In this document: one piece after another, positions 1,823 to 40,866 of the stretch
Position numbering within the stretch: the stretch's first letter is position 1
Layout: each line of letters starts with the position of its first letter
From: Escherichia phage LotteLoewe_Bas71
Sequence record: PQ850615.1
DNA: 42,712 nt
Strand: one strand, 5' to 3'
Notes under the pieces: generated by a model
Seen by the model: only the letters and a program-made list of their open reading frames with translations
Databases searched by the model: none
Told to the model about the DNA's origin: nothing
Made by a program: the position numbers and the translations under genes

Positions 1823-3304
1823 ATGTTAACTATGAACGGTCAGAATCAGGGTGTTAAGACAAAACACCGGGAATGGCTGCATCACTTCGATAAATGGCAG
1901 AAGGTACGCCACGCTCTTGAAGGCGACCTTATCCGCTATCTGCGCAACGTCGGGAAGAACGAGCCTGACCAGACCTACGCAGCACAGCGACAGGAAGAAT
2001 ACGAGAACGGCGCTATCTGCTACAATTTCACCAAACGCACGCTGGCGGGGATGACGGGGTCAGTGATGCGCAAAGACCCTGAGCAGATTATCCCGCCTGA
2101 ACTTGAGTACCTGTTGCACAACGCTGACGGTTCAGGTGTCGGGCTGTGGCAGCACGCGCAGGATACGCTGATGGAGATTAACTCGATAGGCCGTGGCGGG
2201 TTGCTGGTGGACGCCCCGGAAACAGCCGCAGCAACGGCGGCAGAGCAGAACGCGGGATTATTAAACCCGGTAATCGCATTCTATACCGCGGAGAACATTA
2301 TCAACTGGAGACTCACCCGCATCGGTTCAGTGAACCGCGTGACGATGGTTGTATTGCGTGAGGCATGGGAATACTCGGAACCAGGCGCTGAGTTTGAAAC
2401 AAAATTCGGCGAGCAATACCGCGTCCTTGACCTGATTGACGGTCGCTACCGCCAGCGCATCTACCGCTTCGATGCCGAAGGTGGCGCACAGGATGAAGTA
2501 ATCGAAATCTTCCCGGAACTCGGCGAACAGTTGCGCGGTAAAATCCCGTTCACGTTCATTGGCGCAAGCAACAACGACGCCACTATAGACGATGCGCCTT
2601 TACTGCCGTTAGCTGAGCTAAATATAGGACACTTCAGAAATTCGGCCGATGTGGAAGAGGCCAGCTTTATAGTAGGTCAACCGACACTGTTCATTGCCCC
2701 CGGCGAGAACATGAGCATGGAGCAGTGGAAAGAAGCCAACCCACACGGCATACGCATGGGGTCGCGTTCAGGCCACAACATCGGCTCCGGCGGAAATGCG
2801 TTTCTGGTTCAGGCGGCGGAAACTAACCTCGCCAAACAGAATATGCTGGATAAAGAGAATCAGGCCATCCAGATTGGCGCGCAGCTTATCACCCCGACGC
2901 AGCAAATCACCGCGGAATCGGCCCGCCTGCAACGCGGCGCCGACACGTCAGTCATGGCAACAATAGCACGTAATGTAAGCATGGCGTATACCGATGCGTT
3001 GCGCTGGGTTGCGGGTATGCTTGGGCTTAGTGAAGATACTGAGATTGAGTTCAAGCTGAATATGGAATTCTTCCTGCAACCTATGACAGCTCAGGACCGC
3101 GCTCAGTGGATGGCGGATATTAACGCTGGCCTGCTACCCGCCACCGCTTACTATGCTGCGTTGCGCAAGGCAGGTGTGACTGACTGGACAGATGAGGACA
3201 TTCAGAACGCTATTGAAGACGCACCTCTGCCGTTGGGTTCTGTTGCTCAGGTAGCGGGAGAGATTCCGCAGTCGGCGCAGCAACAGGACACCACTCAGCA
3301 GTAA
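1823..3304 (+). CDS. portal protein
   Basis: 493 aa ORF directly after terminase large subunit with GAGGA SD; size and position typical of portal; acidic C-terminus. Confidence 0.65.
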   Translation: MLTMNGQNQGVKTKHREWLHHFDKWQKVRHALEGDLIRYLRNVGKNEPDQTYAAQRQEEYENGAICYNFTKRTLAGMTGSVMRKDPEQIIPPELEYLLHNADGSGVGLWQHAQDTLMEINSIGRGGLLVDAPETAAATAAEQNAGLLNPVIAFYTAENIINWRLTRIGSVNRVTMVVLREAWEYSEPGAEFETKFGEQYRVLDLIDGRYRQRIYRFDAEGGAQDEVIEIFPELGEQLRGKIPFTFIGASNNDATIDDAPLLPLAELNIGHFRNSADVEEASFIVGQPTLFIAPGENMSMEQWKEANPHGIRMGSRSGHNIGSGGNAFLVQAAETNLAKQNMLDKENQAIQIGAQLITPTQQITAESARLQRGADTSVMATIARNVSMAYTDALRWVAGMLGLSEDTEIEFKLNMEFFLQPMTAQDRAQWMADINAGLLPATAYYAALRKAGVTDWTDEDIQNAIEDAPLPLGSVAQVAGEIPQSAQQQDTTQQ

Positions 3305-4878: not shown

Positions 4879-4881
4879 TAA

Positions 4882-4909
4882 AAGGCCCCATTATGGGGCC
4901 TTAGTTTTC
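4882..4909. terminator. bidirectional intrinsic terminator
   Basis: AAGGCCCC-ATTAT-GGGGCCTT hairpin flanked by A-run upstream and T-run downstream; between convergent genes. Confidence 0.6.
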
Positions 4910-5111: not shown

Positions 5112-5138
5112 TTTTCACCTCCTGTTTAAGTTAACTGA

Positions 5139-5167
5139 ATAGTACCCTATTATATTGGGGTGTGCAA
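5139..5167 (-). promoter_or_regulatory. leftward class A promoter for accessory gene 4908..5111
   Basis: On the minus strand TTGCAC (5162..5167) - N17 - TACTAT (5139..5144); same palindromic core. Confidence 0.55.
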
Positions 5168-10785: not shown

Positions 10786-11954
10786 ATATGGCTACAACTC
10801 CTTTTAAGGGCGCGAATACCGCGCAATTCTATGTGGCGGAAACTACCCCTGGCGTAACACCGACTAACCCGGTATGGTCGCCGTTGCGTAACACGGGCGG
10901 CGTTCCCGCTGTAACCCGCGATGCACTGACTTCCAACGAACTGGACGGCAGCCGTGAAACTACATCCATCCGAACCGGTAACAAGCAGGTTAGCGGGGAG
11001 TATGCCATCGAACTTAGCTCTCGTAGCCAGGATGATTTCCTTGCGGGAGCGATGACTTCTACGTGGCAAGCTGGGGTAGAGATTACTGGCGCCGAAATTA
11101 CGGTCGCCCCAGCAGGTAAAACATTCACCCGCGCTGCCGGTAGCTTCATTACTGACGGTGTAGAAGTTGGCGACCTTATTGCGTTCACCGACTTAACCGG
11201 CGACAACGCAAAACCGTTTATCGTGACCGCGGTTTCCGCTCTGGTAGTTACGGGCGCAGGTATTCAGCACACGCTGACAGCAGAGACAGTAACCACTGAC
11301 GCAAAAACTGGCGACAAGCTGGAAACCGGTAACGCGTGTAAGACGTTCTCCATCCTGACGTGGTTCAAGGGCCAGTGTGGTAACCCGGACGCGTACATGC
11401 TGACCAAAGGTGTGGAAATCTCTGGCTTTACCGTAGAGCAGGCGGTTAACGCCATGGTCACCGGCAGCTTCCCGTTCATCGGCCTGAGTCAGGAGATTCT
11501 TACCGCGCCGCCGTCCGGCTCTGATTTCTCTCAGGTTACGTTCACCGATGAGCCGTTCTCGTCGGTAGATGTGTCGGTGTTCGATGGCTCCACGCCGTTG
11601 CGTTGCGATACTCTCACCATCACCAACGACAACGGAGCTTCCGCGCAGTTCGAACTCGGTAACAGTAGCGTGGCGTTCGTCGAACGTGGACGCGCAGCTA
11701 ACACATTCTCTATCTCTGGCAAGCTGTACGACATGGCGATGATTCAGAAGTTTATCAACGAGCAGCAGGTAGAGATTAACTCTATTCTGGCAGGGGTAAA
11801 CGGGGCTATGTCTTTCAGTTTGAAACGTGCAGAGCTTACGGCGGTTACACCTGAGATTGGTGGGCCTGAGTCAATCACTCAGTCCATTGAAGGCCAGGCT
11901 ACCGGCAATCAGTACCAGTCGTCTATCGTAATTCAACGTATCACCTACGCATAA
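10782..11954 (+). CDS. major tail protein
   Basis: 390 aa, T/G/S-rich; last structural ORF before the chaperone/tape-measure block; followed by a strong terminator. Confidence 0.5.
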   Translation: MNMATTPFKGANTAQFYVAETTPGVTPTNPVWSPLRNTGGVPAVTRDALTSNELDGSRETTSIRTGNKQVSGEYAIELSSRSQDDFLAGAMTSTWQAGVEITGAEITVAPAGKTFTRAAGSFITDGVEVGDLIAFTDLTGDNAKPFIVTAVSALVVTGAGIQHTLTAETVTTDAKTGDKLETGNACKTFSILTWFKGQCGNPDAYMLTKGVEISGFTVEQAVNAMVTGSFPFIGLSQEILTAPPSGSDFSQVTFTDEPFSSVDVSVFDGSTPLRCDTLTITNDNGASAQFELGNSSVAFVERGRAANTFSISGKLYDMAMIQKFINEQQVEINSILAGVNGAMSFSLKRAELTAVTPEIGGPESITQSIEGQATGNQYQSSIVIQRITYA

Positions 11955-11958
11955 AACT

Positions 11959-11984
11959 AAGGCCCCTTTCGGGGCCTTTTTCTC
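11959..11984. terminator. bidirectional intrinsic terminator
   Basis: AAGGCCCC-TTTC-GGGGCCTT hairpin followed by TTTTCT; between major tail gene and leftward cassette. Confidence 0.6.
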
Positions 11985-12213
11985 ACTCATCAATATTACT
12001 TCGATACTCCCGTAACTTCTCCAGACTTTCAATTGCTTCTGCTAAGTCGGTTCCGGTGTCCTTGTGTCCACGTAAACCCATGCACAATAGCTTCTTCAAT
12101 GCGTGCTGTAACGCCGGGTCGCGGATGTCGAAAGCGCGGAGCACATCATAAACGTCTACTGTCATAGTGCTGCCGTGAGTATTTGTCATTGTGCGGTTGT
12201 ATTTTGAAGTCAT
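11983..12213 (-). CDS. hypothetical 76-aa protein (last gene of leftward cassette)
   Basis: ATGA-coupled to the upstream metallophosphoesterase gene; followed by terminator 11959..11984. Confidence 0.45.
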   Translation of the reverse strand: MTSKYNRTMTNTHGSTMTVDVYDVLRAFDIRDPALQHALKKLLCMGLRGHKDTGTDLAEAIESLEKLREYRSNIDE

Positions 12214-13749: not shown

Positions 13750-13778
13750 GTTACATGTGAATAGTACCCTATTATATT
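13750..13778 (+). promoter_or_regulatory. candidate rightward promoter overlapping the leftward one (divergent pair)
   Basis: GTTACA (13750..13755) - N17 - TATATT (13773..13778) on the plus strand within the same palindromic element; upstream of tail chaperone operon. Confidence 0.35.
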
Positions 13779-13789
13779 GGGGTGTGCAA
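13761..13789 (-). promoter_or_regulatory. leftward class A promoter for cassette 13732..11983
   Basis: Minus strand TTGCAC (13784..13789) - N17 - TACTAT (13761..13766). Confidence 0.55.
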
Positions 13790-21831: not shown

Positions 21832-23763
21832 ATGTCAAGCGGATGCGGTGACGTTTTAAGCCTGGCGGATTTACAGACCGCCAAGAAGCACCAGATTTTT
21901 GAAGCCGAGGTTATCACAGGTAAATCCGGCGGAGTATCTACGGGTGCTGATATCGATTACGCGACAAATCAGGTTACAGGGCAGACTCAGAAGACGCTCC
22001 CGGCCGTGTTGCGTGACGCCGGGTTCAGACCTGCGCCATTCACATTCGAAACAGGTGGGACTTTGGGCGTTAACGACGCTGACCTGGCGGTGTTGTGGCC
22101 AGGGCCATCAGGCGACGGCAACTATTATGCATGGAAAGGTGCCCTGCCAAAAACCATCCCGGCATCTTCAACCCCGGCGTCTACGGGCGGAGTAGGCCAG
22201 ACCGCATGGGTTGCCGTTAGTGAAGCTGCATTGCGCCGTGATTTGGCCCTAAGCACTGGCGCAGGGCTAGTTGGTACGTCTTCGGGTCGCACAGTGCAAG
22301 GCGAGGTTGACCATTTCAAAATAGGGTATATGACACCCGATGATTTCGGCGCGGTGGGTGATGGTGCCACCGACGACACCACGCCTTTGCAACAGGCTAT
22401 TGACTATTGTTCAAGCAACGGTATCGCGTTAAGAATCCCCGCAAAATCTTATGTTTGGAATGGCGGTATTATAACTTCACCCATAACAATAATCGGTGAC
22501 AGACGTCCAGATTACAATTTTAGCTCCAATTCTATGTCTAACGGGTCTGTCATAATTGGCAATTTAAGATTTTCCGCAAGCCAGGTGATTATTAAGTCAC
22601 TTGGTGTGCGTAGGCCTACAGGCTCCCCCGGAGATTGTCTGGTGTTATCGACCGATAACTATGCTGGTGGGTCTTGTATTGTTCAAGATGTAGTTGCCGC
22701 GGGCCTTTCCGGTTCGGACACGTACCACAGCGTTCTTGTTGAAGGCTACGATTCCGCGCATGTATCTCAAATAACTGGCGGTTATAATCTTTTTGGCCTC
22801 GCGATTAAGTCAAGAAACGTTGTTGCCAGAGGCGTAATAACCGTAAGCTGTGATACTGGCGTTATCATTAAATCTGATAGTGAGTTCAGCACGGCAAAAA
22901 ATGTGGTGCTGGACGGGCACATTAATGTCGGTAATGGTGTTTCTAGTCAAGGTGTTTGGATTTACAGCACAACCGCACAACTTGAGCGTATTACCTGCGC
23001 AAACTTACAAAGCATCGATTCCGCTATACATATGCGGATTAAGTCCGAAAACGTAGCTAATGACGTGCAAATTGTTGGGGCAAATTATTCAGGATCTACT
23101 TATGCGGATGTTTTAGTCGAAGGCACTTCGGCGGGCACATTGTACAATGTTAGTTTAGATAGTATAACAGCAGTAGATAGCCAGAAATTTATGGCTGCAG
23201 GTTTCTGTGAACAACTGATGGTAACAGGATTCTATGGGTCCCTGAAACCTGGCGCTCCCGCCGATACTGCGTTTGAGGTTAGCGCCGCCGTAGGGCTTTT
23301 TAGCGGGTCAAATATCCAACTAGTCCGTCAACACGGCAGTGACCTAATGACAATGAATCTCGGTAACAGTTATCTTAATAATAGATTATCATCTGTTAAG
23401 GCGAAAGTAATAGGAGACGGCAAACCTAGACCGGGGTATAAAGAACAGAATCTTAGCGGCGCTGCGGCTTCAATGATTGTCGGCGACAGTTTGGGTCCCT
23501 CTGGGGTTGTGTCTGTCACCGCGTTATCCACCGGCAGTTCATTCAGCAGTATTTCTATTAATGACGACTATGGTCAGCCGGTTAAGCCAGGTTTTCTTCT
23601 AATAATCCGAAACGCATCCCCTATCCCGTTCGTTATGAACCATAATCCAGGGTCTGGTGGAATCGCAAATAACGGGGCGGTGGGTAAGACCATTGCGGGC
23701 GGAGACACTATAATGTACGTTTTTGACGGGGCGAATTGGCGTCAGACTCCATCAGTAACATAA
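21832..23763 (+). CDS. tailspike / receptor-binding protein with pectate-lyase-like beta-helix (putative polysaccharide depolymerase)
   Basis: Motif DFGAVGDGATDDTTPLQQAIDYC typical of the pectate lyase 3 fold; last gene of the tail operon, followed by a terminator. Confidence 0.6.
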   Translation: MSSGCGDVLSLADLQTAKKHQIFEAEVITGKSGGVSTGADIDYATNQVTGQTQKTLPAVLRDAGFRPAPFTFETGGTLGVNDADLAVLWPGPSGDGNYYAWKGALPKTIPASSTPASTGGVGQTAWVAVSEAALRRDLALSTGAGLVGTSSGRTVQGEVDHFKIGYMTPDDFGAVGDGATDDTTPLQQAIDYCSSNGIALRIPAKSYVWNGGIITSPITIIGDRRPDYNFSSNSMSNGSVIIGNLRFSASQVIIKSLGVRRPTGSPGDCLVLSTDNYAGGSCIVQDVVAAGLSGSDTYHSVLVEGYDSAHVSQITGGYNLFGLAIKSRNVVARGVITVSCDTGVIIKSDSEFSTAKNVVLDGHINVGNGVSSQGVWIYSTTAQLERITCANLQSIDSAIHMRIKSENVANDVQIVGANYSGSTYADVLVEGTSAGTLYNVSLDSITAVDSQKFMAAGFCEQLMVTGFYGSLKPGAPADTAFEVSAAVGLFSGSNIQLVRQHGSDLMTMNLGNSYLNNRLSSVKAKVIGDGKPRPGYKEQNLSGAAASMIVGDSLGPSGVVSVTALSTGSSFSSISINDDYGQPVKPGFLLIIRNASPIPFVMNHNPGSGGIANNGAVGKTIAGGDTIMYVFDGANWRQTPSVT

Positions 23764-23767
23764 AACT

Positions 23768-23792
23768 AAGGCCCCGTTTGGGGCCTTTTCTC
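23768..23792. terminator. bidirectional intrinsic terminator between tail and replication arms
   Basis: AAGGCCCC-GTTT-GGGGCCTT hairpin followed by TTCTC; flanked by convergent operons. Confidence 0.6.
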
Positions 23793-23929
23793 TACTCTTC
23801 CGATAACTTCTCCAGCACAAACGCCAGTTGCGCATTAGCGGCATCTCTCTGTTGCCGTAGGCGTAGAACCTCCTCTTCGAGTTCCTTGATACGTTTTTGC
23901 AATGCTGGAATCGGGGCTATGATGTTCAT
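23792..23929 (-). CDS. hypothetical 45-aa coiled-coil protein
   Basis: Small ORF ATGA-coupled to the upstream gene; terminal gene of the leftward arm before terminator 23768..23792. Confidence 0.3.
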   Translation of the reverse strand: MNIIAPIPALQKRIKELEEEVLRLRQQRDAANAQLAFVLEKLSEE

Positions 23930-26510: not shown

Positions 26511-26826
26511 TTCTAAATTCCTTATATTGTTGGGGTATGTGCTTACTATAATAGTCTGCTATTAGGGTGTCAATCTGTTTTATCGAACCAACGACAAAAA
26601 CATTTGCGCCACGTTTACGTATACGCTCGTGTTCCCGTAGCTGGTGCGGGTCTGGCTTAGTGTTTTCGTCTTTCTTCACCTCGACGAACCAGACGATGCC
26701 GCCGGGTAGAATTGCCAGCAGGTCAGGAGCGCCTGAACGTCCTTCGTAGGAAAGTTTACGAACGAGGCCACCAATGGCCTCGAATCGCTCTTTTGCGTAT
26801 TTCTGGATGCGGCCCTCTTTAGTCAT
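26494..26826 (-). CDS. VRR-NUC domain nuclease
   Basis: PD-(D/E)XK-like core (GAPDLLAIL ... VWFVEVKKDEN) typical of VRR-NUC. Confidence 0.55.
   Translation of the reverse strand: MTKEGRIQKYAKERFEAIGGLVRKLSYEGRSGAPDLLAILPGGIVWFVEVKKDENTKPDPHQLREHERIRKRGANVFVVGSIKQIDTLIADYYSKHIPQQYKEFRNETRI
26545..26573 (-). promoter_or_regulatory. leftward class B promoter (TTGACA-N17-TATAGT)
   Basis: Minus strand TTGACA (26568..26573) - N17 - TATAGT (26545..26550); lies inside the 3' end of the VRR-NUC ORF. Confidence 0.5.
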
Positions 26827-29526: not shown

Positions 29527-29551
29527 GTAAAAAGGCCCAATGAAGGGCCTT
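29527..29551 (-). terminator. intrinsic terminator after SSB-like gene
   Basis: On the minus strand AAGGCCC-TTCATT-GGGCCTT followed by TTTTTAC. Confidence 0.5.
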
Positions 29552-29570
29552 AGTTAAATTGATTCAGATA

Positions 29571-30197: not shown

Positions 30198-30255
30198 TTG
30201 ATTTCTCGCTTTTCAGTTTCAGTTTACTCCGGGATCTGCCCGGCCAGTGATTAGA

Positions 30256-30284
30256 ACTATAATAGCTAACTATTCATGTGTCAA
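30256..30284 (-). promoter_or_regulatory. leftward class B promoter (TTGACA-N17-TATAGT) for SSB-like gene
   Basis: Minus strand TTGACA (30279..30284) - N17 - TATAGT (30256..30261); core AATAGCTAACTATTCA. Confidence 0.55.
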
Positions 30285-32023: not shown

Positions 32024-32524
32024 TTATTCTTCTTCGAAATACTTGTTCTTAATCGCCGTCAGGCGTTTCAGGTATTCAGCTAGGTCTTCGTCTTTAATCG
32101 CGGCAATCTTCATTTTCTTACCGGTGAACTCCTCCAGCAGTTCATCGGAATCGTCGCACGCAGCATCGCTAGGACCTTCGTTAATTGCATCGTCGATAGC
32201 CTGAATCTGGTCACGAAGAGACTGGTAATCGACCTCTTCTTTCTCTTCTTCTGGTTCTGGAGTCGGCTCCTCTACTTTAGCTTTACGCGGCTTGCGTTTC
32301 GGCTTCTCTTCTTCTGCTGGTTTAGCGTCAACGATGTCTTCACCTTCAACAGGGATTTCTTTTGTTGCTTCTTTTTCGCACTCAGCTACCGCTTCTTTGG
32401 TATACACTACCGTCTCTACTTCTAACGGCGCTGCAACTTGTGCTGACTGCTTCGCACTGTTCGCAGCAATCAGTTCATGTGCAACTACGAAACGTTCCAG
32501 TAATTTTAAGAATTGTTCTAACAT
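32024..32524 (-). CDS. highly acidic early protein (candidate DNA mimic / anti-restriction)
   Basis: 166 aa, very D/E-rich with one basic patch (KPKRKPRKAK); first gene after tandem leftward promoters; conserved leader CGAGAGGAGAGA. Confidence 0.5.
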   Translation of the reverse strand: MLEQFLKLLERFVVAHELIAANSAKQSAQVAAPLEVETVVYTKEAVAECEKEATKEIPVEGEDIVDAKPAEEEKPKRKPRKAKVEEPTPEPEEEKEEVDYQSLRDQIQAIDDAINEGPSDAACDDSDELLEEFTGKKMKIAAIKDEDLAEYLKRLTAIKNKYFEEE

Positions 32525-32555
32525 TTGTTTCTCTCCTCTCGTTTGGTATGGGCTA

Positions 32556-32584
32556 ACTATAATAGCGAACTATTCACATGTCAA
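32556..32584 (-). promoter_or_regulatory. leftward class B promoter (TTGACA-N17-TATAGT) for acidic early gene
   Basis: Minus strand TTGACA (32579..32584) - N17 - TATAGT (32556..32561); core AATAGCGAACTATTCA. Confidence 0.6.
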
Positions 32585-32599
32585 TGGGCTTTTCTAAAA

Positions 32600-32628
32600 T
32601 AATTAATATGGTACTATTCACATATCAA
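32600..32628 (-). promoter_or_regulatory. second, weaker tandem leftward promoter / operator half-site
   Basis: Minus strand TTGATA (32623..32628) - N17 - TAATTA; contains half-site GTACTATTCACAT. Confidence 0.35.
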
Positions 32629-35300: not shown

Positions 35301-35589
35301 ACCGTTTAGCCAACCCTTCCAGCAAATTTTTATACTCTTCAAAATATTCCTCGACCAAATCATCGCCGAAATAGAAGTCGATATACTCGAGATTATCTCT
35401 TACGTTAAGCGATGCCGACATGGTGCTTAGTTGGCGTAAGCTAATTAGCTTCATTTCTGTTTCTACGCAGAAAGGCCGGTAGGTATCAAGATGGCAAGAG
35501 ATATTGAAGCATAAAGCGAACTCTCCGGCCACGGAGTGAACCATATACACTTCGTTTTCTGCTTTATTGTGGAAAATTACGCCTTTCAT
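35299..35589 (-). CDS. hypothetical 96-aa protein
   Basis: ORF ATGA-coupled to the upstream AlpA-like gene. Confidence 0.4.
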   Translation of the reverse strand: MKGVIFHNKAENEVYMVHSVAGEFALCFNISCHLDTYRPFCVETEMKLISLRQLSTMSASLNVRDNLEYIDFYFGDDLVEEYFEEYKNLLEGLAKR

Positions 35590-35768
35590 TTCACGTTCTC
35601 CTTAATCCATGCTTCGACTTTATTACGGTCAAATGTTCCCGGTAAACGGCGGCCCATAACCTTAATACAGCAGTCAGGGAATTTGCCGCTGCGCAACCAG
35701 TTATTAATGGTCTGACGTGTCACCCCGATACGCTCGGCTACCTCATTCTGTGTCATGTAATGTTGCAT
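35586..35768 (-). CDS. AlpA/Xis-like HTH DNA-binding protein
   Basis: Start refined to ATG 35768 (AGGGGA SD); HTH region MTQNEVAERIGVTRQTINNWLRSGKFP typical of the AlpA family; first gene of the leftward arm. Confidence 0.6.
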   Translation of the reverse strand: MQHYMTQNEVAERIGVTRQTINNWLRSGKFPDCCIKVMGRRLPGTFDRNKVEAWIKENVK

Positions 35769-35799
35769 TTTTATATCCCCTGTTTGTTTAGTGAAACCG

Positions 35800-35828
35800 A
35801 GTATAGGATAGCGGGAATGTAAAAGCAA
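35800..35828 (-). promoter_or_regulatory. leftward promoter of replication arm (TTGCTT-N17-TATACT)
   Basis: Minus strand -35 TTGCTT (35823..35828), 17-nt spacer, -10 TATACT (35800..35805); about 30 nt upstream of AlpA-like ATG. Confidence 0.5.
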
Positions 35829-35865
35829 CCAATCCCTGCAATATTTAATCTTTACAAAAAAGTTA

Positions 35866-35895
35866 TTGAAAGTTCTTGACACATGTTTGTATAAT
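35866..35895 (+). promoter_or_regulatory. rightward promoter in central control region (TTGAAA-N18-TATAAT)
   Basis: -35 TTGAAA 35866..35871, 18-nt spacer, consensus -10 TATAAT 35890..35895; divergent from promoter 35800..35828. Confidence 0.5.
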
Positions 35896-36187: not shown

Positions 36188-36216
36188 TTGCACACCCCAA
36201 CATAATAGGATACTAT
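36188..36216 (+). promoter_or_regulatory. early promoter, class A (TTGCAC-N17-TACTAT) with palindromic core
   Basis: -35 TTGCAC 36188..36193, 17-nt spacer, -10 TACTAT 36211..36216; core CATAATAGGATACTATTCA. Confidence 0.55.
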
Positions 36217-36241
36217 TCACTTATCGAAACGAGACAGAGGA

Positions 36242-36442
36242 GTGAGGGTTATGTTTAAGAAGGGTCAGTTGGTTAAAACTAAACGCGGAGGGCAATATGT
36301 ATTAGTGTTGCAGGACGAGAGCGAGTATGACGAGGATAATCTGGTTGACGTATGGGGTCTGGTAAGAAAGAAAACTGGGTTCGCCTCCCGCGATAATTTA
36401 GAACTCATCGGCAACAATTTTAAATTCAAAGGGGCGAAGTGA
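36242..36442 (+). CDS. hypothetical early protein (66 aa)
   Basis: First ORF after promoter 36188..36216 with conserved AACGAGA...GGAG leader. Confidence 0.45.
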   Translation: MRVMFKKGQLVKTKRGGQYVLVLQDESEYDEDNLVDVWGLVRKKTGFASRDNLELIGNNFKFKGAK

Positions 36443-37265: not shown

Positions 37266-37296
37266 TACGCTGCTACACAGCAGCGTATCATTTTTC
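37266..37296 (+). terminator. intrinsic terminator after first early operon
   Basis: TACGCTGCT-ACAC-AGCAGCGTA followed by TCATTTTTCTC. Confidence 0.55.
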
Positions 37297-37380
37297 TCAT
37301 TTTTGTTCTATTTCACCAAACGCAACAATCGAAGCGGCTATTGCAGGAGATGCAACAATACAAACACCAATAAAATTTAC

Positions 37381-37409
37381 TTGCACACTAATATAGAATA
37401 GGCTACTAT
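37381..37409 (+). promoter_or_regulatory. early promoter, class A (TTGCAC-N17-TACTAT)
   Basis: Same architecture and core (TAGAATAGGCTACTATTCA) as 36188; follows terminator 37266..37296. Confidence 0.55.
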
Positions 37410-37440
37410 TCATTTACACAAACGAGAGGAGAGACGGAAG

Positions 37441-37590
37441 ATGGTTACTTTGATGATTATGGAATTCGAAAACAGCGCCGCAACTTATCGCGAGATGACT
37501 ATGGCGCAGGCGTACCGCCTGGCCTCGAACGGCAACTTCTACAAGGCGCAAATCATCAATGAGTTCGGGGTAATTGACTATGAATTTTAG
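37441..37590 (+). CDS. hypothetical early protein (49 aa)
   Basis: First ORF after promoter 37381..37409; 22-bp leader CGAGAGGAGAGACGGAAGATGG. Confidence 0.4.
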   Translation: MVTLMIMEFENSAATYREMTMAQAYRLASNGNFYKAQIINEFGVIDYEF

Positions 37591-37852
37591 CAGCTACACC
37601 GTGACCGTTGATTTTGAGGGGCTGGAGTTGCCCCTCCCAAACAACTATCGGTATATAACTCGCGATAGTAATGGGTTTATTCAGGGGTGGCGGAACAAAC
37701 CGACAGACACTGAGTTCGGGATGTCGGGTGGGGAAGAGTTGCCAATCACGTTCGGACATCAGAGCAGCAATGAAGAGCTTAAAACGGTGATTCGTAAGTA
37801 TCGCCGACGCGGCAACACGGGGCTTATCGCAATAACAGGCGCTGTTGAATAG
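37580..37852 (+). CDS. hypothetical early protein (90 aa)
   Basis: ORF overlapping the upstream gene; ATG 37580 (alternative TTG 37574). Confidence 0.4.
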   Translation: MNFSSYTVTVDFEGLELPLPNNYRYITRDSNGFIQGWRNKPTDTEFGMSGGEELPITFGHQSSNEELKTVIRKYRRRGNTGLIAITGAVE

Positions 37853-37871
37853 GCGAGAGGAGAGACGGAAG

Positions 37872-38009
37872 ATGGGCGGGTACGGTAGCTGGACTTTAGG
37901 CGAACTGGTAGATGCTTACGAAATAATGGGCAGCACTTCGGTGTGCAACGGAGACACTAAATCGCTTCTAGTCGGGGCGGATGAGAAAAGGGGTGAAGCT
38001 GATGAGTAG
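37872..38009 (+). CDS. hypothetical early protein (45 aa)
   Basis: Preceded by an exact second copy of the 22-bp leader/start element (37854..37875). Confidence 0.35.
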   Translation: MGGYGSWTLGELVDAYEIMGSTSVCNGDTKSLLVGADEKRGEADE

Positions 38010-38700
38010 CAAAAACGAAGTATTCGAGTACCTGATTGACCAGTTACGGCAGCACGTAAATAACCACCCATACAAGCAACAGTGCGAAGACCTGGCACAT
38101 GAGGTGCTGTCACTTAAGAATCAGTTACGTGATGCGTCGGCGCTGGTGGCTGAGTTACAGGAAGACAACATTAAGAAATCTGAGCACATATCGCACCTGT
38201 CGGAACTGGTGGACGAGTTGATGGGGACTATAACGTTAATGAACGGGGACGTTGAGGCTCACAAAGTTCTACGCAAATGTGCGTGCGCCTATGGGCAATC
38301 CGGTTGTCGCGACGACGCCGCTCATATCGAGAAATCGTGGATTGAGCACGCTGGCGCCGCATGCCCTGTACCGGACGATACTGTTGTTGATATTAAATTC
38401 CGAAACAGCAAAATGGAAAGTAATACCAAAGCGCTATGGTGGAGTTGGGGCCTAAATGGCGGACCATACGAAATTGTTGCGTACCGTGTTGCCGCGCAAC
38501 AATGCAATAAGGACGATACTCGTGAGTGCGCGCATGATTGGGTGCTGGACGAAAAAGGGGACTACTTCATTTGCGCTAAATGCGGTAAGCAAGAAGCTGA
38601 ATTAATTGATTGCCGACACACTAATACCGTTGGTTTGCGTAAGGGTTTTGCGCCGGGGTTTACTAAAAAGTGTCTGGATTGCGGGGCTAAACTGAAATGA
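38002..38700 (+). CDS. hypothetical Cys-rich protein (232 aa)
   Basis: N-terminal predicted coiled coil, C-terminal CxxC pairs (CAKCGKQ ... CLDCGAK); start refined to ATG 38002. Confidence 0.45.
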   Translation: MSSKNEVFEYLIDQLRQHVNNHPYKQQCEDLAHEVLSLKNQLRDASALVAELQEDNIKKSEHISHLSELVDELMGTITLMNGDVEAHKVLRKCACAYGQSGCRDDAAHIEKSWIEHAGAACPVPDDTVVDIKFRNSKMESNTKALWWSWGLNGGPYEIVAYRVAAQQCNKDDTRECAHDWVLDEKGDYFICAKCGKQEAELIDCRHTNTVGLRKGFAPGFTKKCLDCGAKLK

Positions 38701-40804: not shown

Positions 40805-40833
40805 TTGACTATTACCTACGACCCTATTATATT
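40805..40833 (+). promoter_or_regulatory. rightward promoter (TTGACT-N17-TATATT)
   Basis: Canonical sigma70 spacing; sits right after terminator 40754..40782; spacer carries CCCTATTATAT, related to the shared core. Confidence 0.55.
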
Positions 40834-40866
40834 TACTCCATCGACAACGAGAACGGAGTAGAGAAG

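Follow-up and report, generated by a model that had tools for sequence, protein, structure and literature searches.

The genome of Escherichia phage LotteLoewe_Bas71 (PQ850615.1), analysed here as a single stretch of 42,712 nt (the window), contains the exact 22-mer CGAGAGGAGAGACGGAAGATGG twice on the plus strand, at 37423-37444 and 37854-37875. Comparison with related phages indicates that this 22-mer is probably a conserved leader for translation initiation, with a second role as a short boundary sequence flanking an accessory cassette. The duplication had been noted in a first-pass annotation of the same DNA, together with the claim that each copy provides the Shine-Dalgarno sequence (SD) and the ATG of a small open reading frame (ORF). 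Both statements were borne out: the two positions matched exactly, and AGGAG lies 9 nt 5' of ATG 37441 (gene A) and of ATG 37872 (gene C), within the 5-10 nt looked for before the start of a real gene, gene A being a member of DUF7170/phrog_4653 and gene C of a family that is kept in relatives.

Leader copy 1 (37423..37444, +) forms most of a predicted 25-nt 5' untranslated region (UTR), with AGGAG at 37427-37431 and the ATG of gene A at 37441; transcription is predicted to start at ~37416, and the repeat to begin at about +8 of the transcript. Gene A (37441..37590, +; 49 aa) is the first gene of the optional cassette, and gene B (37580..37852, +; 90 aa, phrog_1972), which overlaps the end of A by 11 nt, is the second. 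Copy 2 (37854..37875, +) is intercistronic: gene B ends with TAG at 37850-37852, copy 2 begins 1 base past that stop, and the SD and ATG (37872) that it contains serve gene C (37872..38009, +), which encodes a small acidic protein of 45 aa from a hypervariable family (alleles C, D, F, I and K). One repeat unit, comprising leader, A and B, measures 431 bp, and a repeat finder listed the 22-mer as the two-copy family D13 with a spacing of 431. No further copy of CGAGAGGAGAGACGGAAGATGG was present in the window at <=3 mismatches, and 100 dinucleotide-preserving shuffles gave 0 matches, so that none is expected by chance. The first-pass annotation had allowed that the identity might be limited to what a strong SD alone would produce; it reaches ~15 nt past the 5-nt SD core and takes in a C as well as a spacer that looks variable, the non-SD bases being CGAG... 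and ...GACGGAAG. The initiation region is predicted to be accessible: the minimum free energy of the leader RNA is -3.9 kcal/mol, compared with a mean of -6.8 for shuffled sequences (z +1.5), and its centroid structure is fully open. Folding of four leaders revealed no RNA structure beyond chance (z +1.5 and +0.8, no better than shuffled), and none of the four matched an Rfam family at E<=1.

Relatives provided evidence for a boundary role. Within the Guernseyvirinae, the window belongs to the Kagunavirus-type coliphages; its closest GenBank records are ~93-95% identical over the region, which is strongly mosaic, with query coverage of 32-100%. The compared set consisted of the window, 15 GenBank relatives (L001-L015) and 21 IMG/VR loci (L016-L036) retrieved with a degenerate 20-mer, 20 of the latter being Kagunavirus-like; a scan of IMG/VR with the exact 22-mer gave no match. 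When one 431-bp unit was virtually deleted, the window aligned to L006 and L009 without gaps, in one block (~92% identity) that spans the junction, while the alignment of the undeleted window to the same genomes started only at copy 2. The 431-bp spacing was found in eight genomes. Promoter and leader occur together in 116 Kagunavirus-type phage records and full-length A-B in only ~21, which identifies A-B as a minority accessory cassette; as a single copy, the repeat is the normal leader in ~100 genomes. Judging from these sequences, A-B in Kagunavirus is always bracketed by leader copies. Separately, the remaining IMG/VR locus, the unrelated 92-kb L023 (IMGVR_UViG_3300037461_000726), contains an exact 20-nt leader match at 3125(-), directly after a consensus TTGACA-N17-TATAAT promoter and before a small hydrophobic ORF; this is probably coincidence or convergence, with 1-2 such matches expected by chance in the collection.

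Across the GenBank relatives, the Kagunavirus-like IMG/VR loci and the window we collected 45 leader sites. A promoter lies upstream of 31 and, by a strict search, the 3' end of gene B upstream of 11, and in all 13 genomes that carry gene B the leader directly follows its stop. L017 also has the leader after a membrane-protein gene, and further leader-like junctions were seen after gene X and within the 3' end of gene J. Downstream, BLASTP clustering resolved ~8 unrelated families (family 1, A, E, J, H/M and three singletons), ~7 of them behind promoter and leader specifically. A first count, with 13 classes of gene following the promoter-leader and 4 following the B-leader, was discarded as an overcount, BLASTP having merged C, D, F, I and K into family 1. 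The B-leader is followed by family 1 alleles C, D or F or by gene E, and C, D and F also occur directly behind the promoter-leader; in the relatives, gene C thus stands either behind promoter and leader or behind B and leader. One short sequence therefore lies between modules that are unrelated on at least one side, with two main upstream contexts and ~8 downstream families. Among 33 promoter-context sequences, column conservation averaged 0.95 over the promoter and 0.90 over the 22 nt of the leader but dropped to 0.53 in the 30 nt that follow ATGG, and homology behind the promoter-leader ends at the start codon. Since the leader is the sole sequence common to otherwise unrelated neighbours, it would act as a boundary or linker. 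The suggestion of the first-pass annotation that a module had been duplicated or recombined is, for its leader part, supported by the exact empty site, the two upstream contexts and the ~8 downstream families.

These observations probably reflect the following mechanism. The leader, purine-rich and unstructured, would comprise the 3' part of the 5' UTR, a strong SD, a spacer and the ATG, and would head a hypervariable second early operon of Kagunavirus phages. Its two copies in the window would reflect an optional 431-bp unit lying between the promoter-leader and the gene that is otherwise first (family 1), each copy driving translation of the gene behind it. Recombination from leader to leader, within one genome or between co-infecting phages, would gain or lose A-B and re-pair the leader with different downstream genes, and every such exchange would leave a working ribosome-binding site. 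Leader-to-leader recombination would explain the exact empty site, the strict linkage of B and leader, and the re-pairing of the B-leader with C, D, F and E. We infer that translation efficiency keeps the non-SD leader bases constant, and that the 20-24 bp leader is the physical site of the crossovers, made by general or phage-encoded recombination, as opposed to selection acting on the junctions only afterwards. Among the products of the replication module are a PD-(D/E)XK nuclease (DUF2800) and an Enc34-type protein binding single-stranded DNA, both of which count in favour of this reading; the module also encodes PolA, a primase/helicase, an SNF2 helicase and a C5 methylase.

The first-pass annotation had further proposed that promoter, leader and ribosome-binding site behave as one portable cassette, which does not hold in the window. 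What is repeated is leader, SD and ATG alone. Copy 1 follows a sigma70-like promoter (TTGCAC-N17-TACTAT with a GAATAG-N4-CTATTC palindrome; 37381..37409, +; repeat families D1/D2/D7), while no promoter-like site was found upstream of copy 2. A hidden promoter remnant at AATAGG before both copies was considered and rejected: these bases are the Glu and stop codons of gene B (GAA TAG), present in the Drexlerviridae phage aalborv too. Promoters of this family number 7-9 in the window and lie at 5136-5167, 13758-13789, 26544-26573, 30255-30284, 32555-32584 and 32599-32628 on the minus strand and at 36188-36216, 37381-37409 and 40805-40833 on the plus strand. Just 3-4 of them carry an AAACGAG-type leader, which argues that promoter and leader are separable modules: such leaders stand behind promoters 37381(+), 32584(-), 36188(+) and, weakly, 40805(+). 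Promoters 30284(-), 26573(-), 13789(-) and 5167(-) have unrelated leaders.

The related leaders named in the first-pass annotation, before 32524(-), 36242 and 40867, are nevertheless present, although one of the assigned gene starts probably needs to be moved. A third copy of the leader core, the exact 15-mer AAACGAGAGGAGAGA (32530..32544, -), lies behind promoter 32555-32584(-) and before ATG 32524 of a 166-aa acidic protein (phrog_3127). The related leader ATCGAAACGAGACAGAGGAG (36223..36242, +) lies behind promoter 36188-36216, and the gene it serves most likely starts at ATG 36251, as a 192-nt ORF annotated in relatives, and not at GTG 36242. The leader ATCGACAACGAGAACGGAGTAGAGAAG (40840..40866, +), which begins ATCGACAACGAGAACGGAG, lies behind promoter 40805-40833 and before ATG 40867. 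As for the promoters themselves, their consensus is TTGACA or TTGCAC, N17 and TAnnnT, with a quasi-palindrome TGAATAG-N4-CTATTAT/CA over the -10 box, and an exact repeat of 32 nt links the members at 5136 and 13758. The quasi-palindrome resembles an operator, and a small helix-turn-helix protein at 35586-35882(-) (HTH_17/HTH_3) is a candidate for binding it. The paper on fBC-Eco01 lists the promoter motif among 'phage promoters' called by PHIRE (PMC9825357); despite this label, no phage RNA polymerase was noticed in these phages.

Several findings weigh against the recombinational part of our interpretation. First, the two copies are not homogenised: they differ on average at 1.69 of 18 positions when taken from one genome and at 1.88 of 18 when taken from different genomes (13 genomes, permutation p=0.22), and concerted evolution or gene conversion between them is therefore unsupported. 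Second, the leader, A-B and the empty site were all found in Kagunavirus relatives, where the first-pass annotation had proposed to look for the cassette, but the exact identity of the copies is peculiar to the window among the 13 genomes, the other 12 differing at 1-3 of 18 positions. As 7% of between-genome copy pairs are identical too, the 22/22 match is better read as the extreme case within a conserved element that is polymorphic at three positions than as a conserved property, and the exactness may be due to chance among few polymorphic sites. Relative to its closest promoter-A relatives the window has two leader differences (37436 and 37440), which fall on family-wide polymorphic sites and are only marginally enriched. 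Third, the most recent crossovers relative to the closest relatives lie within genes. The window is a mosaic: its terminator, promoter, leader and A match L004/L015 at 98-99% identity, its B, leader and C are the same as those of L001 (100%), and for the 3' part of E the identity to L005/L009 is 99-100%; nearest-neighbour switches had been expected at the leader copies but sit near the A/B junction (~37548-37591) and inside E (38002-38700). Ordinary homologous recombination occurs wherever homology exists, and the leader is thus no unique hotspot. Fourth, some leader-gene junctions share just ~4-8 nt of microhomology with the alternative arrangement. The leader-E junction has only GATG(A) in common with the C-E junction of the window, and the start codon at the joint to E in L004/L015 is GTG; leader-to-leader homology alone, then, cannot account for some junctions, and illegitimate events with subsequent selection are suggested. 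Lastly, no annealase (Erf, RecT, Red-beta or Sak) was recognisable in the replication module.

These points lend weight to the main rival explanation, which we nonetheless judge unlikely: that the leader is merely an optimal ribosome-binding region for highly expressed early genes, with selection holding the copies near one optimum, and with illegitimate joints of which only the leader-preserving ones survive, the leader itself having no share in recombination. A strong SD, unstructured RNA, independently varying copies, intragenic recent crossovers and microhomology junctions all speak for it, and it agrees with a Hendrix-type view, as summarised in PMC3029335, in which most mosaic joints lack conserved sequences. 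It accounts less well for an identity extending so far beyond the SD core, and the quite different leaders used by four promoters of the same family argue against a single genome-wide optimum. The empty site in L006/L009 corresponds to the exact loss of one unit, as a leader-to-leader event predicts, even though recent crossovers in the window are intragenic and some junctions show microhomology only. Random joints plus selection would likewise not readily yield an identical junction position before ~8 unrelated families. A leader-like sequence also occurs inside a gene: in other genomes the 3' end of gene J contains GGGGAGGAGACAGAAGATG, which there also codes for an acidic C-terminus. In L017 (minus strand), L012 and L026 this 3' end (…GGGGAGGAGACAGAAGATGAGTAA) encodes the acidic tail EETEDE and its stop together with a leader-like SD, spacer and ATG for gene E, and by its sequence the gene J coding region doubles as a copy of the boundary element.

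The same genes are bracketed by a different repeat in another phage family. Gene A is found in Drexlerviridae, and in aalborv gene B as well. In aalborv and Roth84 the gene pair lies between direct repeats of a longer regulatory cassette ending at ATG, so that the picture of a portable promoter-leader cassette, which failed in the window, does apply there. The repeats (aalborv, L038, 533-614 and 1030-1109; Roth84, L037, 525-604 and 949-1028) consist of a promoter-like segment and a leader (CACTTTTTGYTAAAAC ... ATCGACAACGAAC(C)GAGGA ... ATG). Those of aalborv share a 21-nt exact segment and a 17-nt segment (94% identity) at a spacing of 497, and those of Roth84 are 80 nt long, 78% identical and spaced by 424. 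Like the window, these phages hold gene A (in aalborv also B) between direct repeats ending at ATG, and their core ATCGACAACGA(A/G)...GAGGA is related to the window leaders at 36223 and 40840, the 11-mer ATCGACAACGA in the 40840 leader being identical to the leader core of the Drexlerviridae cassettes. Unlike theirs, the repeat of the window is Kagunavirus's own leader and lacks a promoter. The core ATCGA(C/T)AACGA occurs in the whole aalborv genome at the two flanks and in one near-match within a coding sequence, with no other intergenic site. Taken together, this suggests a repeat-flanked mobile early-gene cassette common to phage families. A bolder version strikes us as rather improbable: that the leader family (ATCGA(C)AACGAG plus SD) is the dedicated linker of an integron-like early-gene cassette system common to Guernseyvirinae and Drexlerviridae, unrelated siphovirus lineages of enterobacteria, which would actively channel small anti-host cassettes such as the DUF7170 pair across families by leader recombination promoted by the phages' nuclease and single-stranded DNA-binding functions, and may serve as a common translational control site too. 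The gene A homologue of Roth84 (L037 601-753, XNO99891.1) carries the GenBank label 'anti-RM protein stp1', for which we found no support in the literature, Pfam, PHROGs or NCBIfam, the latter three leaving its function unassigned.

Control in trans offers another account of the conserved bases outside the SD. The leader could be an operator for a phage or host RNA-binding translational repressor or activator, or for a small RNA, with a small regulon made up of A and C together with the gene of the 166-aa acidic protein at 32524, and perhaps also those starting at 36251 and 40867. The sequence ACGAGAGGAGAGA has three copies in the window at <=1 mismatch (one of them with one mismatch), each directly before a start codon on the coding strand. 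The analogous start-associated sequences (SAS) found in mycobacteriophages of Cluster K, which have the consensus GGGATAGGAGCCC, lie 3-8 bp ahead of the start and number ~10-20 per genome (Pope et al. 2011), have been proposed as possible binding sites (PMC3203893). Like an SAS, the leader is an asymmetric, conserved motif of ~13 nt with an AGGAG core a few bases 5' of the ATG of non-structural genes of different families, and its conservation exceeds the need for rRNA pairing. It differs from GGGATAGGAGCCC in sequence, has just three strong copies where mycobacteriophage genomes have ~10-20, and lacks an extended inverted-repeat partner, and SAS are not reported to flank indel cassettes. At <=3 mismatches the count of ACGAGAGGAGAGA equals the chance expectation, and AACGAG is not over-represented in the window (18 copies against ~21 expected, 4 of the 18 in promoter-proximal leaders). 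No sequence complementary to the leader was found elsewhere in the window on either strand, nor any conserved RNA structure or candidate RNA-binding protein, and the genes behind the leader vary freely among relatives, unlike a fixed regulon. We therefore regard an operator as very unlikely. Target-site duplication by an active mobile element (a transposon or homing-endonuclease cassette) that inserted A-B would fit direct repeats around an insertion absent from relatives but is effectively excluded, as A and B match no transposase, HNH, GIY-YIG, recombinase or other nuclease domain in Pfam, PHROGs or NCBIfam and thus contain no mobility gene, terminal inverted repeats are absent, a 22-bp duplication coinciding exactly with SD and ATG is atypical of transposition, and the single-copy repeat is an ordinary leader elsewhere.

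The interpretation of the 22-mer as leader and boundary sequence in one has precedents in two known systems. In T4-type phages, promoter-early stem-loop (PeSL) cassettes consist of repeated promoter/stem-loop elements that flank ORFans, with crossovers mapped between the -10 box and SD/ATG and with mini-circles detected (Arbiol et al. 2010, PMC2839356; see also Comeau et al. 2014, PMC4122927). The window resembles them in several respects: repeated regulatory sequences bracket small genes of unassigned function in a hyperplastic early region, relatives with the cassette carry two elements and those without it one, the crossover segment (-10 to SD/ATG) is the same kind of segment as the window leader, and a terminator hairpin (37266), promoter (37381) and leader (37423) stand in series at copy 1. 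The hairpin, intrinsic-terminator-like and followed by a T-run (37266..37287, +; 9-bp stem with 5 GC pairs, tail TCATTTTTCT), would close the preceding operon 5' of the promoter, and the Snoke annotation has a terminator at the equivalent place. There are also differences. The window repeat is ~22 nt (leader, SD and ATG) rather than ~100 bp, includes no sigma70 early promoter and no stem-loop or terminator, the hairpin being present at copy 1 only and none lying between B and copy 2, and it belongs to a siphovirus of the Guernseyvirinae, not a T4-like myovirus. Since copy 2 has neither promoter nor stem-loop, the inserted genes would not be transcriptionally insulated and would be co-transcribed with the downstream gene.

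The second precedent is the short conserved boundary, or 'linker', sequence of the modular-evolution theory of Susskind and Botstein and of lambdoid phages, as cited in PMC3029335 and PMC2327257. There too, a short gene-boundary sequence common to phages that are wholly different on one side leads to homologous module exchange with genes left intact. The linker in the window differs in having an assignable primary function, translation initiation, in occurring twice in one genome around a defined two-gene cassette, and in being shorter than most proposed linkers. By these comparisons the element would work like PeSL and boundary sequences while failing the defining features of PeSL and SAS.

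The genes that the leader serves resisted functional assignment. Searches of Pfam, PHROGs, NCBIfam, PDB sequences and cluster names returned only 'hypothetical' or DUF for A, B and C, and A and B had no sequence match to solved structures at E<=1. Gene E (38002..38700, +; MSSKNEVF..., 232 aa), which in some relatives is joined straight to the leader, after B or after the promoter, likewise received no functional assignment beyond phrog_6094. The family 1 proteins (39-58 aa, with an acidic C-terminus) share the core ...L.EL.D.YE...(S/F)(V/I)C(N/D)GD... and are encoded at 37872-38009 in the window and in the first-gene slot of L003, L006, L009, L011, L012, L020, L028, L030 and others. Beside a nearly invariant leader, their alleles have diverged in DNA until they resemble different genes, a pattern reminiscent of diversifying selection on an anti-host factor. 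In L002 (fPoEco01) a 45+5-nt insertion in gene A at ~1395-1594 yields a tandem frame-shifted peptide with HTASHGITRH twice; gene A appears disrupted there, with B and both leader copies kept.

Two further features of the region and the genome were observed. The interval between terminator and promoter (37288-37380) is a second indel hotspot, which holds an extra small ORF of 168-285 nt in several relatives (L001, L005 1339-1506; L017) and none in the window. Elsewhere, GC-rich hairpins flanked by A/T runs (CATAAAACTAAGGCCCC...GGGGCCTTTT) are repeated at 11950-11991 and 23759-23800 (42 nt, 83% identity) and at 4879-4906 and 29528-29555 (28 nt, 79% identity); they probably form one family of intrinsic (bidirectional) terminators placed where modules meet.

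No prior description of the leader was found in the searchable Kagunavirus literature. The finding adds one case to the literature on boundary sequences and PeSL cassettes; it raises no new question and would not surprise specialists. It does provide a clean sequence-level example, in a small, engineerable genus of coliphages, of how an early-gene slot may be reshuffled with expression intact, the leader staying constant and the genes being interchangeable. The arrangement of promoter 37381, leader and ATG would make a natural 'landing pad' for payload genes, and the A-B pair, an optional accessory cassette held in common with T1-like phages, is a candidate for anti-defence activity.

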